A stretch of DNA of 64,000 bases from Blastocystis sp. Blastoise (GCA_039096225.1 JBBPEB010000021.1:124001-188000), one strand, 5' to 3'. Shown: positions 2,407-59,070, counted from the first letter of the stretch. Numbers and translations are program-made. Notes: generated by a model from the letters alone, not told the origin.

Positions 2407-4451
2407 ATGTCAAGCACTTTACCAAACTCTGCTGCTGCTAACCAAAAGAATTATGTCGTGTTTTATGGAGTTGAGCATCAACAAAAATTCATGATTTCTA
2501 CAGAGAAGCTACAACTATATCCTGATTGTTGGCTTCATAAAACCATGATGAAATGCGAAGATCCTTCACAATCTCAATTTGATACTGTTTACTCTGAAGA
2601 ATCCTTAGAGGTCATTGCTGATTATATAGATGGAAAGCCAATACATGTGGAGAACAAGTCTAAAAAGTCTTTACAACAAATTTTATCTGATTTTGATTTA
2701 TGTCAATTATCTGTACCTTATGAATTGAAAACTGCATTAAAGACTAATGATAACGCGCTTCAAACTGTAGATAAACAAAATAAGAATTATGAGAATTCAA
2801 ATGATAGTAGTAGAATAGATAGTTTAATGAAATCAGTAAATCAATTGACGACTGTGGTCCGTAATTTATTTGTTGATAATGAGAATTTGAAGAAAACTAT
2901 AATTGTTCTTGAAGATAAAGTTGTTGAATCTGAAAAACATGTGAATGAATTAAGAAAACTAATAGATCAAAATTCAAAACGTTCATTATTAGTAGAAGAA
3001 CAAGTGACAATCAATGAATTAGCTATTAAAGGATTATTAGAAAGATCTAATAAGAATAACGAGAATATTCATCATCAGTTAGATCTTATTCATCAAAATA
3101 TATATCAACAAAATTCATTAAATATATCTGAAAATATAATTCATGAAGAAGATGATAATGATATTAATAATGATAATGATAATAATGTGAAAACACCTAC
3201 TTCATTTCCTATATTAGATGATATATCTCCTTTACCTGAAATATTCTATAGTGATTTAGATGATGATGAAGAAGAAGAAGAAGAAGAAGAAGAAGAAGAA
3301 GATAATGATAATGATAATGATAATGATAATGATAATGATAATAATAATGATAATAATAATGATAATAATGTAGCTGTTTATCATGATTTGGATGGTATAA
3401 AAAAGTCACCAAAACAGTCGATTACTGAGTCGTTAAGTTTATCAAATAGTAAGATATTGAAAGGAAATACTATATATATTAATTCTATACATAACTGGTT
3501 TGATTACTCAACTCAATGGAAATTACTTTATAGGTATGTTTTACTAGTCTCTTCAATAAATATATGTTTTTTATATTTCATAAATTCAATATATAAAAAT
3601 ATATATATTTTTTTAAATATTCCTATTGATGAAAAAAACATGTTTTATTGTATAAAATGATATTTTTAATATGTATGCTATATTATAAAAAAAATGATAT
3701 ACCATTATGTTAGTATATGTTATATATATATATATATATATAGAGGATCTCGAGATGGTTTTACAAGTTTAGCTTTTCATAAATTATGTGATAACCACGG
3801 GGAAACACTGACTTTGATTGCACATCAAGGACATGATGATATTATGAATATATTTGGAGGATATACAAGTCAAAAATGGGATAGTTCTGCTACTGGTAGT
3901 ATATATATAATAGATATTCATATTATTAGTCAATCTCTTCTATTTTATATATAATATTTTAGATATCATATTAGAAAATGTAATTAAAAATAAATTTATA
4001 ATAATATAATTAATATATAATAATAATTATAATAATAATAAACATAATAATAATAATAATAACTAATAATAATAATAAACATAATAAATTTATGATAAAT
4101 ATAATAAATATATAATAATAAACATAATATATAGTATCTCTTCGTGACCCGACTGCCTTTGTATTTACATTAAATAATGAACATAATATTTCTCCTACTC
4201 AATATAGTATTATTGATATAGATCATGCTATATATTTAAATACACAATCTGGACCTTGTTTTGGAGAAAGAGGAAATACTATATATATATCGGATAACTG
4301 TAATACTTCTTATGAAAATTATACTTGTTGTACTGGATATACTAGTGAAAATATGATTCAAAACCATTCACTTTTTGTGAATACAGATATTGATATAGTT
4401 GCTAATTATTTCTATGTTGATGATATTGAAGTTTATGAACAATTAAAGTAA
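2407..4451 (+). CDS. BTB/T1-like N-terminus + coiled coil + acidic tract + TLDc domain protein (3 exons)
   Basis: N-terminal YVVFYGVEHQQKFMISTEKLQLYPDCWL...VIADYIDG is BTB-like. Spliced TLDc motifs: WKLLYR|GSRDGFTSLAFHKLCDNHGETLTLI, IFGGYT, AFVFTL, GPCFG, DIEVY. Stop at 4449-4451. Confidence 0.85.
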
Positions 4452-5374
4452 ATTCATTATTATTTAATTATAATATATCTATATATTGTTATTCTTATAA
4501 TGAAATGGAATACTATTCTTTATGATATTTATTTATACTATACTTTATATCTTCAATTTTCTTGCTTTGCGTCATCTTTATTCATTATTATAATTATTAC
4601 TATTTTATTCATTATAGATATATATTTTATTTATAGTCTAGAAGTCATTCACTATTTATTTCTATTATTGTTCTTTATTCTTTTTTTCTAAACATTTATT
4701 TTCTTAGTTCTTTTTTTATGTTATTTCATTACTCATAGCTGCTATTTCTATTTTTCTTTTTTATAGTTTATTAGATTTATTATGTGTTTTAGTTTTTTTT
4801 TTTAATGAATATTTTTCCTTGTAATATTTATGTAATTATTATTCACTGAACAACGCAGAAATAAACTATAAACAAGTAATTACTATAAAAATGATTATAT
4901 ATTTACATTTCTTTTTTCAGAAAGCATTCTAGATAGAGTATTTAATGTTCAGAGTATATTTATAACCTATTATATATGTATTAAAGTATAACGATTCACA
5001 ATTTATAAAAATATATCCAGTTACATCGAAATAAACACTCTGATTACTTATATTTATTTTTTCATATAACATTTTGATACTAATCAAAAAGAAAGTAAAC
5101 AAATATATACATAATAATATCATTAATTGTAAATAATCATATCTAAAATCTTTCATAATACCAATATACCATTCATATATAATCTCAGATATAAATAGAT
5201 ATTAAAAATCTTTAAATATATAATCATAACAAAGTTGCATGCAAAAAAAGTATTAAAAACAAAATCACGATTTTATTTTTTCTACGGACAGAATGTTTAA
5301 AAAAGAATGATTATTGTATTATAGTATTCAATAGCTTCTATATTCTTTTTTTTGTTAGAAGAACACAAGTTTGA

Positions 5375-55933: not shown

Positions 55934-56230
55934 TATTTATGAAAAATGACAGTGTTTAATAGAATACTAGAGAAATATACTTTAATAAAAGTAAAGAAAA
56001 ATAAAATCGTGAAAAAAAATCAGAAATGGCGGAAAAAATTTGTTCTTGACTCGACGGTATATTTAAGAATTGGGAAAATTACAAATTAAACTGGAAATGA
56101 ATTAAAAAAACATAAAGAATTATTAGAATTGAATAATAGTTCAAATCAAGCTAATTTCAATTTCAATATTGTTTTCATTTGTATAATTATTCTTAGTATG
56201 TGATAAAAAATTGTATATAGGAAAATTGAT

Positions 56231-59070
56231 ATGTCACTATTTAAATTGAATAATATATCGGAATTAATTTCAATTCAAGACTTTATTAATGAGGAGAACG
56301 CGTTGAATCATAATGTGAAATCTCTTTTTGAAAACATACATGAAGAAAGACATTTTAAGTATGAATTATTTTGTTTATTATATTATTTTTTCATAAATAT
56401 ATATGAATTTTATAGTTTATCTGGAATGGAGAACACACGCAAATCTATTTTAGAAACTCAAATACAACATACATTAACTCAATGGACAGAAATAAAGCAA
56501 AAGTATATTATTAAAAAATACATGTTAATAAATATATATATAATAAGGCTCCGAGAAGACAAAAAGAATGAAAAACTGTGTGAAGAAAATGATAGGAATA
56601 CTGAAGAAATTGAAAAACAAGTAATAAACAGTAGTCAAGAAGACAATATAAATACTATATCACATAATAATATAGAGGATATATCAATCGATAATCATAT
56701 TATATATAATGATGAACACAATAATTCTAAGAATTATATAACTACAGATAATCACGGGAATTCAATTATAGATTTATCTTCGGATTGTACGAAAGGCATA
56801 ATGGATTCTTCTTTAGATATAGATATGAATAATAGTGTTTATATGAATAGTAATAATAATGTGAATAGTAATATTAATGTGAATAGTAATATTAATGTGA
56901 ATAATAATGATAATAATATCGATAATAATATTGATGATCAGAGTATAAATATGAATAATAATAATGTTAATAAAACAATTGATATCGATAATAATAATAA
57001 TAATACTATAGATGTTAAAGATAATAATAATGATATGAATAATAATATTAATATACATGATACTGTTAATAATACAAGTGATAGAATAAATAATACGGAA
57101 ATTGATGTAAATAATAATAATAATGATAATAATAATAATAAAGATAACATTAATATTGATGATATAACAGAACAGAATATGCCACAAAACAATTCTAATG
57201 AAATACTAGAGAATAGCCAACCAAATACAAATATAAAAACACAAATAAATAGTATTCCATCGATACTAACAGATCCAGCATTTCAAACTATTTCACAACA
57301 ATTAATAACGTATATATATATATAGATTTTATTCATAGAATATATAGATTTCTATTTATATTGTGTTATTATTATTATTCTTTATAATTATATATATATA
57401 TCTAAAGACCTTCAGAATTATTTTCATCTTTTAATTCACTTTCTATTTCGAATTCGAAAGAACTTCCACCTCCTGAAGTAATCTATCCTTGTAAAAGAAC
57501 GTCTATTCCCACGAATATAAATAATAATCAAAAGAAAGTAGCTATGATTCAAATACTACTGTATATAGTTATGCATATTGTGTTTTTATAAGTTTTTATT
57601 TATTGTATTTATATTTTATTATATTTATTATTTCTTTATTATATTATATTTATGATGTTTTTATTATGTTTTTTGTTTTTTATTATATTTATTATATTTA
57701 TGATGTTTATTATATTATTATTCTTATGAATACTATTATTACTATGAATCTATTAGTATTCCACAACATAAACGGTCTAGTGTCCATCGCTATTTATTTC
57801 ATTCGAATCAATTACTAACTTGTCTTACTTCTATAATCAGGTATATATATAGTATTATATATATAATACAATATGAATATTAAAAATATATGATGATTAT
57901 TATTATAGCCATATATATTATATTGTATTATATAAAAAAATAAATATTATATATGTGTAGAAATAATTGTACAAATTCAAAAGTTAAAGATTCTTCTAAA
58001 CATATGAATACCAGCGAAAATGAATATAATAATAATAATAATAATAATAATAATAATAATAATAATAATAATAATAATAATAATAATAATAATAATAATA
58101 ATAATAATAATAATAATAATAATAATAATAATAATAATAATAATAATAATAATAATGAACAAGAAATAGAAGGTATATATATAGAAGGGACATTCTATAC
58201 ATATTTATCTATGAATAATAATTATGTCACTATTCTCAAAGAATGGATGAATGCAAATAAAATATATGATTCTTCAAAAATAATAGAAAAAGAATTATCA
58301 ACAACAAAAATACAAAATTTAAAAATAAAATTAAATGCACCATATGCTTATTTCCATGGGAATTCATGTCAACATTTATTTACTATAGAACAAATCTATA
58401 TATCATCATATATTATAGATCCTATATTATATCCTATTCATATATCAGAAGTATTTATTATTTATTGTTATTATTAATTATATAATTATTAACATATATA
58501 TATATTATTTATTGTTATTATTAATTATATAATTATTAACATATATATATATTATTTATTCATATTATTAATTATATAATTATAAACATATATACTCATT
58601 ATTTATTATTAATTATATAATTATGAACATAAATATTAATTATTTATTCATATTATTAATTATATAATTATTAACATATATTTATTATTTATTATTAATT
58701 ATATAATTATTAACATATAATTATTATTTATTATTAATTATATAATTATTAACATATATTCATTATTTATTTTTATTATTAGTAAATAATCCGTATAAAT
58801 AAATATATATATAGGATAAAGAAGATATTAAGAAATGCATGTGTTGCCACCGACTTCCAGGTAATTAATTTTTCTTGTCATTTTTTTTATTTGTAATTAA
58901 TCAATATATATTCAAATCTATGTTTTATGTATTCAGGTAAGTATCTATGTACAAATTCATTGCTTTCTCCATCGTCTCCACATATTTATTGTTATCAATG
59001 CTTGCATATGCTTCATTATTCTAAAGATAATAAATTGATTACACCTAAATTCACTATTAAGCCGATATAG
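56231..59070 (+). CDS. SNAPC3: snRNA-activating protein complex subunit 3 (SNAP50) with Asn-rich expansions
   Basis: IYIEGTFY, KIQNLKIKLNAPYAYFHGNSCQHLF and the C-terminal Zn finger CMCC...SPSSPHIYCYQCLHMLHY. The start codon is uncertain. Confidence 0.82.
58028..58156 (+). repeat. (AAT)n coding microsatellite (poly-Asn, about 43 codons) in SNAPC3
   Basis: Perfect AAT run inside an in-frame exon. Confidence 0.95.
58451..58780 (+). repeat. Degenerate ~40-45-bp minisatellite in a SNAPC3 intron
   Basis: Repeated TTATTAATTATATAATTAT(T/A/G)AACATA(TA)...TTATTTAT units. Confidence 0.8.

Follow-up and report, generated by a model that had tools for sequence, protein, structure and literature searches.

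A 14-bp degenerate dyad iterated within the gene bodies of Blastocystis sp. Blastoise and its possible reading by a dimeric protein

We analyzed a single 64-kb stretch of DNA from Blastocystis sp. Blastoise (64,000 nt; JBBPEB010000021.1:124001-188000; hereafter the window), to which all of our motif counts and tests refer, and found that the GC-rich hexamer CRCGGG, singled out as highly iterated in an initial annotation of this DNA, lies at the center of a longer unit, a degenerate 14-bp dyad of the form AT(TC/AA)YCRYGR(GA/TT)AT, with its axis between R and Y. The motif is real. We found no description of it, or of DNA methylation in Blastocystis, in the literature searched, which did not reach bioRxiv supplements and subscription journals. 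The explanation that we favor, with a confidence that is only modest, is that the dyad is the selected binding site of a putative dimeric protein that marks gene bodies as a CpG-retaining chromatin domain.

Enrichment and anatomy of the dyad

On both strands together, CRCGGG matched 16 times, against a mean of 0.89 and a maximum of 4 in 100 dinucleotide shuffles; shuffling within 200-bp blocks gave a null of 0.93 (maximum 5). Judged against Markov backgrounds of order 1–2, CGCGGG and CACGGG stood with the GC-containing 6-mers in strongest excess. All 15 positions at which the hexamer had been listed were present, the 16th match being 6751 on the minus strand, the mirror of 6753 (CCCGCGGG), and the six near-variants listed at 2208, 7258, 9474, 12950, 44726, and 57507 were likewise found in the sequence. 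The claim of an iterated, enriched motif therefore stood, but the 6-mer did not stand as its unit, which is instead the 14-bp dyad with core CRYG. In the 15 sites chosen by the 6-mer alone, position −1 was C or T in 15/15, position −4 was T in 13/15, and position +7 was A in 13/15. When the arms were fixed as ATHHYC/GRDDAT and both strands were read, the central pair was AC 11 times, GT 11 times, GC 8 times, and AT 6 times (expected 0.37, 0.37, 0.05, and 1.69, respectively), with the remaining pairs near expectation; since the excess was limited to these four pairs, the core is CRYG. Fourteen of the 15 listed positions thus belong to one family, while 52346, which has the 6-mer, stands outside it because the 14-bp flanks are absent there (below 7 bits).

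Written in the ambiguity code of the International Union of Pure and Applied Chemistry, the form ATHHYCRYGRDDAT had 18 matches versus 1.23 expected. A palindromic matrix, trained on the window itself, returned 28 sites above 12 bits, the score by which we define a dyad site, compared with 1.45 in 100 block-wise shuffles; in a held-out test, with each half scored by a matrix built from its counterpart, 8 sites were recovered versus 0.69 expected and 17 versus 1.04. We set aside an unconstrained expectation-maximization motif model because it had drifted towards codon periodicity.

The cores of the 28 sites were CACG in 13, CGTG in 2, CGCG in 7, and CATG in 4 cases, and two sites, at 9576..9589 (ATAAC CGCG GGAAT) and 55190..55203 (ATTCC CGCG GTTAT), correspond to the consensus. 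Two arm classes recurred, ATTCC in 15/56 arms and ATAAY in 16/56, and positions −3/−2 were AA or TC with strong linkage (p = 1.7e-8). Like and unlike arms both pair within sites, and arm-to-arm matching within sites was 79, versus 82.3 ± 5.2 for permuted pairs. None of the six sites that we folded (0/6) beat shuffles as a hairpin, and half-sites outside full sites were nearly absent (ATTCCCG 0 and ATAACCG 1 in 33 kb of site-rich DNA). Because the two arms of a site vary independently of each other, form no hairpin, and are seldom found singly, we infer that the site anatomy points to a dimer reading duplex DNA. The dyad recurs at roughly one site per kb across two blocks made up largely of housekeeping genes, and a putative two-fold symmetric DNA-binding dimer would read it. 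The two half-site types, ATTCCCR and ATAAYCR, may stand for separate subunits or for different modes of binding. A viral origin was considered and rejected, as all of the IMG/VR loci with the consensus 14-mer (76/76) hold one match only.

Dyad sites in exons and introns

Judged from its sequence, the host is a tortoise-clade Blastocystis. The GC content of the window is about 21%, its introns are long, AT-rich, and bounded by GT-AG (median 78 nt for 116 modelled introns), and the closest named matches of its intronless legumain are paralogues from Blastocystis sp. Blastoise, at no more than 77% identity; over 72 residues, an exon of RRP45 matches an NCBI protein of Blastocystis sp. Blastoise at 100% identity. 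For the tortoise isolates, the accessible text of PMC12129017 gives a GC content of 21–23%, long introns, and genomes of three, plus long reads and RNA-seq. The gene models used here are our own; Pfam supports those for UTP7, RRP45, RNase Z-type, TLDc, FHA, SNAPC3, HAD, RGS, and legumain genes, and codon tests covered 17 of the 21 models (g18, g20, g50, and g62 were excluded, and the gene at 1-1770 was left without a model).

With amino acids held fixed, the 20 exonic sites compare with 3.98 expected from pooled codon usage or 4.36 from within-gene usage (maximum 9 in 300), and CRCGGG under the same codon-preserving resampling was found 12 times versus 0.69 or 1.08. The enrichment thus survived, within the window, the codon-preserving shuffle that had been proposed as a check. 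Most of the 20 coding sites use rare synonymous codons (5–10% usage) and all three frames are represented; the three codon examples given earlier, in RRP45, UTP7, and RNase Z, were correct. The occurrence of sites on both gene strands, in three frames, in introns, and in rare codons, with no hairpin, supports the suggestion of the initial annotation that a DNA-level signal is laid over coding sequence. On the explanation that we favor, selection, rather than mutational drive, would be what writes the dyad.

In UTP7, rare codons spell family-consensus residues at two sites, including 12295..12308 (GTAAC CGCG GGAAT), where ACC GCG GGA yields the family-consensus T-A-G, while a third site in the last exon, 12946..12959 (ATTAC CGTG GGATT), encodes W462, with W present in 0/36 homologs at that position. 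The consensus site at 55190..55203, in an RRP45 exon, encodes R142, from which 13/13 relatives differ, having N (10), S (2), or E (1). No insertion was seen at the aligned sites in the UTP7 or RRP45 protein alignments.

Sites were genic in 26/28 cases, versus 69% (p = 0.003). The earlier statement that there are no intergenic copies holds, by our gene models, for exact CRCGGG but not for the dyad, two of whose 28 sites are intergenic (cores at 2212 and 17772): 2207..2220 (ATTCC CGCA GTTAT; 16.4 bits), about 190 bp before the start of a TLDc gene, and 17767..17780 (ATTTT CACG GATAT).

Three of the 116 modelled introns hold a site, and 4 of the 11 CpGs listed in these introns fall in site cores. 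The copies said to lie in near-pure AT introns, at 8572 and 9581, are indeed intronic according to spliced contigs from RNA runs: the dyad at 8567..8580 (ATAAT CACG GGAAT) is in intron 8561-8634 of a minus-strand gene and the consensus site at 9576..9589 is in intron 9570-9673, both are spliced out, and in both cases exactly 11 nt separate the end of the core from that of the intron. Such a spacing places the right arm over the usual acceptor sequence, and this overlap may be the sole cause. In RNase Z, the core of 7254..7267 (ATAAC CACG GTTAT) starts 15 nt past the donor of intron 7244-7490, a junction that fits a loose contig end, and 11955..11968 (ATTTC CACG GGTAT) lies across the modelled exon/intron donor in UTP7. 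The site at 19979..19992 (ATAAC CACG GGGAT) is at an intron end or in an exon; with an unreliable gene model in this stretch, its core (19984) is an uncertain third intronic case of the 11-nt spacing.

That the dyad acts at the level of RNA or in splicing, or is a scar left by a very small mobile insert, would suit the two intronic cores at 11 nt, the one starting past a donor, and the one overlapping a donor. We nevertheless regard this as very improbable, given that the sense strand carries both core orientations (CACG 9, CGTG 5), that there was neither a hairpin nor any Rfam match (0), that so few introns hold a site, and that the UTP7 and RRP45 alignments lack insertions. Furthermore, 57 candidate 30-nt introns, likely from human subtypes, have no such core. 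For this reason, and because there is one 5′ site only, we dismissed as coincidence that the intronic offsets add up to the human-subtype intron length (15 + 4 + 11 = 30).

The comparison with RNA runs covered one region, 7480-9700, and two runs, X1 (RNA by guess) and X2 (polyA RNA-seq from a different study). Run X1 contigs contained three exonic sites without any differing letter and skipped the introns holding 8572 and 9581, and in run X2 the three cores were kept with one outer-arm base changed. The exonic site at 8660..8673 (ATATC CGTG ATTAT) has the same letters in both runs, and 9301..9314 (ATATT CACG GGAAT) is the one whose outer arm differs in X2 while its core is unchanged; also exonic are 9471..9484 (ATAAC CGCG AATAT) and, with an off-consensus core, 9749..9762 (ATTCC CTTG GGAAT). 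Six of the 14 X2 differences fall in 9280-9320 (41 bases), around one site with an unchanged core. Since RNA-run contigs from two studies agree at the three exonic sites, these are not the artefact that the initial annotation had raised as a concern. Although the window itself supplied the training data for the matrix, and the gene models are ours, chance, codon constraint, or assembly artefact is scarcely credible as a general explanation, being refuted within the window by the cross-validation, the codon-preserving nulls, and the RNA-run contigs at 3 sites.

Site blocks, CpG content, and core orientation

The sites form two blocks. The left block (2207..19992) has 20 sites in about 18 kb and spans TLDc, RNase Z, aldo-keto-reductase-like, UTP7, and second TLDc genes and a poorly modelled gene at 19–20 kb. 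Beyond the sites already described, these are 3791..3804 in a TLDc exon (ATAAC CACG GGGAA; AAC CAC GGG); 5888..5901 (GGACC CACG GGAAT; CCC ACG GGA), 6386..6399 (TTTCC CACG GGAGA; TCC CAC GGG), and 6748..6761 (ATCCC CGCG GGACA; TCC CCG CGG GAC) in RNase Z exons; 14139..14152, with a weak CATG core, in a TLDc exon (ATATC CATG AGGAT); and 19650..19663 (ATAAT CATG GTTAT) and 19899..19912 (TTCCC CGCG ATTAA), where the gene model is unreliable. The right block (44724..58363) has 8 sites over a BTB-domain gene, the FHA gene, RRP45, and SNAPC3: in exons at 44724..44737 (ATTCC CACG ATTAT) and 46495..46508 (ATAAT CGCG GTTAT; ATC GCG GTT), in the FHA gene at 53311..53324 (TTATT CACG GGAAT), in RRP45 at 54610..54623 (TGTCC CATG GGAAT) in addition to the consensus site above, and in SNAPC3 at 56748..56761 (ATAAT CACG GGAAT), 57505..57518 (ATTCC CACG AATAT; modelled exon), and 58350..58363 (ATTTC CATG GGAAT). 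Between the blocks, 19993..44723 is a desert with no site above 12 bits over 24.7 kb, in which the genes are CpG-depleted; this longest gap has p = 5e-5 whether all, genic, or exonic positions are used. The earlier claim that copies are missing between 20 and 52 kb therefore applies to exact CRCGGG and fails for the dyad variants at 44729 and 46500.

That an ordinary transcription factor (divergent E2F/DP, bZIP, or Myb dimers) co-regulates growth and RNA-processing genes singly, through intragenic cis-elements, would fit the presence of RNase Z, UTP7, RRP45, SNAPC3, and the FHA gene among the site genes, and two arm classes would suit a heterodimer. Still, unrelated neighbors (TLDc, reductase-like, BTB) carry sites too, which argues for a block rather than a regulon, and with only two intergenic sites the promoter-proximal position typical of such elements is not seen. 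Of the other known motifs compared, Reb1, E-box, and SCB matched 0/28 sites, and CSL (3/28), EBF (5/28), and Myb (7/28) do not explain the site set. The resemblance to an E2F/DP site noted in the initial annotation holds in part: both have a CG core with AT-rich flanks, the ATTCCCGCG half resembles an E2F site and fits the E2F pattern, and 5/28 sites match the pattern WTTSSCGS. The dyad differs in lying in gene bodies and having an R/Y center, and in 15/28 cores an A stands before CG where E2F needs G (NNSGCGSN), according to the accessible text of PMC4862756, which excludes canonical E2F. The SBF (KilA-N) box has an NNCRCGNN core in the same source, and this fits 22/28 sites, but CRCGAAA occurs in 0/28, and KilA/APSES is not listed for the tortoise isolates in the domain counts of PMC12129017 that were available. 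In those counts (Table S5), tortoise versus human isolates have 3/3/3 versus 1–2 E2F family domains, 3/2/4 versus 1–2 heterodimer regions, and 7/6/5 versus 3 bZIP superfamily domains, and E2F, DP, and Rb are all present in the tortoise isolates. Taken together, we consider gene-by-gene regulation by such a factor an improbable account of the dyad.

CpG content follows the sites. In a codon-aware count with the sites masked, 149 CpGs were observed versus 136 expected in the 6 genes with at least two sites, and 87 versus 135 in the 8 genes without sites; the contrast between site and site-free genes was significant (Mann-Whitney p = 0.004), and across 17 genes the Spearman coefficient was 0.64. 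CRCG outside the sites of site genes reached 44 versus 25 expected, and between site-rich and site-free zones CRCG was 50 versus 9, compared with 45 versus 55 for TRCG, so the CpG surplus is context-specific. We saw no CG enrichment adjoining the sites, and short-range CG clustering had a z of 2–3 at 2–14 bp. Dense exonic CG clusters without a full dyad were also present in site-bearing genes, at 52300-52373 (9 CGs), 9103-9150 (6), and 45707-45727 (5). CG showed no nucleosome-length periodicity (best z = 1.06, p = 0.75; 219 CGs in 7 genes, a sample of low power), and we disregarded a 201-bp CG peak in site-free genes (p = 0.055) because the null for those genes is biased. Dnmt5-type periodic linker CG methylation occurs in prasinophytes and some stramenopiles. 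The window resembles it in that gene bodies are CG-richer than background and CGs cluster at short range, and differs in the missing nucleosome-length periodicity and in having a defined 14-bp word; a link between Blastocystis and DNMT5 was not found in the literature searched.

On the plus strand, the CACG:CGTG ratio within sites was 13:2 (p = 0.007) across genes of both strands, while outside sites it was 23:39; core orientation thus tracks the chromosome and not the gene. This, together with a slightly higher GC content at third codon positions in site genes (about 0.17 vs. 0.15) and the clustering of X2 differences at 9280-9320 near one site, would be in line with the dyad marking recombination or replication sites whose surrounding GC and CpG persist through biased gene conversion or through local protection against AT drift. 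We think this quite improbable, however, as CpG is not raised beside the sites, the other two sites covered have no nearby X2 differences, and protection alone cannot create GC-rich codons where relatives have other residues.

Several other features of the window were recorded. The gene at 8081-10436 carries its aldo-keto-reductase-like label as a lead only (feature score 0.88). On the minus strand, 19200-24700 has no reliable gene structure and possibly holds two genes, with pyrimidine-rich exons at 19.4–20.4 kb that encode hydrophobic stretches. Also on the minus strand, 18130-18550 contains four to five GC-richer, exon-like blocks with AG/GT signals at their borders; the first block has stops in all three frames and no continuous reading was found, and the stretch may encode a spliced non-coding RNA or be a pseudogene. 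In contrast to the rest of the window, the roughly 2.7 kb at 24700-27400 has neither a modelled gene nor microsatellite introns and could be a decayed element. Finally, 15494-16819 carries coiled-coil-type tandem repeats (42-bp units and multiples) that lie within a TLDc gene having two TLDc-like halves.

Drive, chromatin, and what the dyad would mean

Among known systems, the highly iterated palindromes (HIPs) of cyanobacteria, HIP1 and its alternates, come close to the dyad: as described in the accessible part of PMC4390886, they are GC-rich palindromes far above chance, at about one per kb where present, within genes, and with their function open. A mutational or repair drive of the kind proposed for cyanobacterial HIP, in which methyltransferase or mismatch-repair bias would ratchet sites towards C-R-Y-G without selected binding, could explain why the core series (CGCG 7, CACG/CGTG 15, CATG 4 of 28) resembles the gain and loss of inner cytosines and why the same blocks hold surplus CRCG beyond the sites, and a replication-linked process would suit the 13:2 strand skew. 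The tortoise isolates also have, in Table S5 of PMC12129017 as far as available, RAMA domains (1/1/1, versus 0 in human isolates) and Mrr (1–2), with 7 D12-class adenine methyltransferases in one of the columns. However, HIPs are crisp words of 5–8 bp spread genome-wide (PMC4390886, accessible part), whereas the dyad is 14 bp long and degenerate, has two arm classes, occurs in regional blocks of a eukaryote, and has no matching methyltransferase identified. The same available part of Table S5 gives one C5-methyltransferase domain in every Blastocystis, tortoise included, and no MBD domain in the tortoise isolates; the single enzyme is probably the tRNA methyltransferase DNMT2. Moreover, CCRYGG is found in 13/28 sites only. 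The initial annotation's lead towards HIPs and methyltransferases was accordingly weakened by this count, the 14-bp length with informative AT ends, the regional spread, and the lone C5-methyltransferase, and what remains of it is a palindrome far above chance in coding DNA. We judge such a drive unlikely.

Noc NBS, matS, and SBS are bacterial chromosome-organizing dyads, and BANP is a vertebrate factor of CGCG elements and CpG islands. Like the dyad, these elements are short, dimer-read, and either region-placed or tied to CpG-rich housekeeping DNA; unlike them, the dyad has its sites in eukaryotic exons and introns and not in promoters. The periodic A/T clusters (PATCs) of Caenorhabditis elegans are, by analogy, a gene-body DNA signal with differences between chromosomal domains and a possible role in licensing endogenous genes (PMC4947018, accessible part), but they are periodic clusters in introns and not a discrete, codon-overriding palindrome. 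Within the genus, the downstream gene element is the sole iterated genome motif described in the accessible text of PMC12129017, and it is AT-rich, at 3′ ends, and confined to human subtypes; the motif search in that text concerned transcript ends only and found nothing in the tortoise isolates. The string "methylat" is absent from the main text of PMC12129017, and "Blastocystis" is absent from the 12 of 23 supplement files of PMC9998398 that were searched.

We favor a selected binding site over these alternatives, and its role would be domain-level and not gene-by-gene, with chromatin kept open or licensed, for example via Set1/COMPASS and Chd1-like proteins. In the available part of Table S5 (PMC12129017), Set1-like, RbBP5/Swd1, and CHD1-like domains number 1–3 in each of three tortoise isolates and 0 in five human isolates. 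The link between dyad and chromatin is circumstantial, coming from these tortoise-versus-human domain lists and from a low site density in likely human-subtype DNA. The latter was taken from 17 of 23 legumain-anchored gut-metagenome loci (about 128 kb, with redundant loci dropped and some overlap left), which are Blastocystis by inference only; there the high-GC part (103 kb) had 9 sites against an expectation of 6.9, and the low-GC part (26 kb) had 6 against 1.6, with one shared site accounting for 3 of these 6. This comparison is a weak one because the legumain neighborhood of the window is itself without sites. One gut-metagenome contig of 52% GC contains a single copy of the perfect palindrome ATTCCCGCGGGAAT (L008:3162-3175). 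CpG depletion differs among gut subtypes too, with likely Blastocystis contigs (loci L010-L013 and L018-L019) having CpG observed/expected ratios of 0.41–0.67 at 37–40% GC and about 0.8–1.1 at 49–58% GC.

A number of results weigh against a dimer-read chromatin mark. The amino-acid cost at W462 and R142 is suggestive only, because residues unseen in relatives occur at 10/201 and 18/106 conserved columns anyway, placing the motif-linked changes within base rates. In run X2, 14/778 bases differ, 1/42 within sites and 13/736 elsewhere, which is the same rate and has no power for conservation. A symmetric dimer does not explain the 13:2 orientation, which was itself found after we had looked at several asymmetries. 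Nucleosome spacing, and the origin positioning suggested at the outset, received no support, the best period among the sites being 146 with p = 0.86. The CpG contrast could stem from expression-linked codon bias or gene age, and it comes from one window, our own gene models, and zones drawn from the sites themselves, while the chromatin-gene link is one clade contrast among many gene differences. Several candidate reader domains also go unlisted in the available part of Table S5 (PMC12129017): Zn2Cys6, CENP-B HTH, and MBD domains number 0 in three tortoise isolates, as does KilA/APSES, although proviral genes may be unannotated, and the CG-1 domain (CAMTA CGCG box) is 0 in all eight Blastocystis columns.

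A bolder form of the binding-site explanation, which we put forward tentatively and hold to be doubtful, is that the chromosome-oriented 14-bp dyad is a second code written over tortoise-clade genes at the cost of rare codons and even amino-acid changes. A lineage-specific dimer would then split chromosomes into CpG-keeping housekeeping domains versus unmarked ones, as a eukaryotic counterpart of HIP-like and nucleoid-organizing words that was lost with Set1/COMPASS in human subtypes.

Most of the codon-overriding iterated words known so far are prokaryotic, and what purpose they serve is a matter of debate. A eukaryotic dyad of such length, set against strong AT bias, is a clean case in which each site is easily visible. 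If a repair drive turned out to be true, the dyad would be a eukaryotic HIP-like ratchet. If the chromatin-domain mark is true, the dyad would amount to a sequence-encoded definition of housekeeping compartments, in a lineage for which the literature searched gives no account of chromatin, and would set tortoise and human Blastocystis sharply apart.

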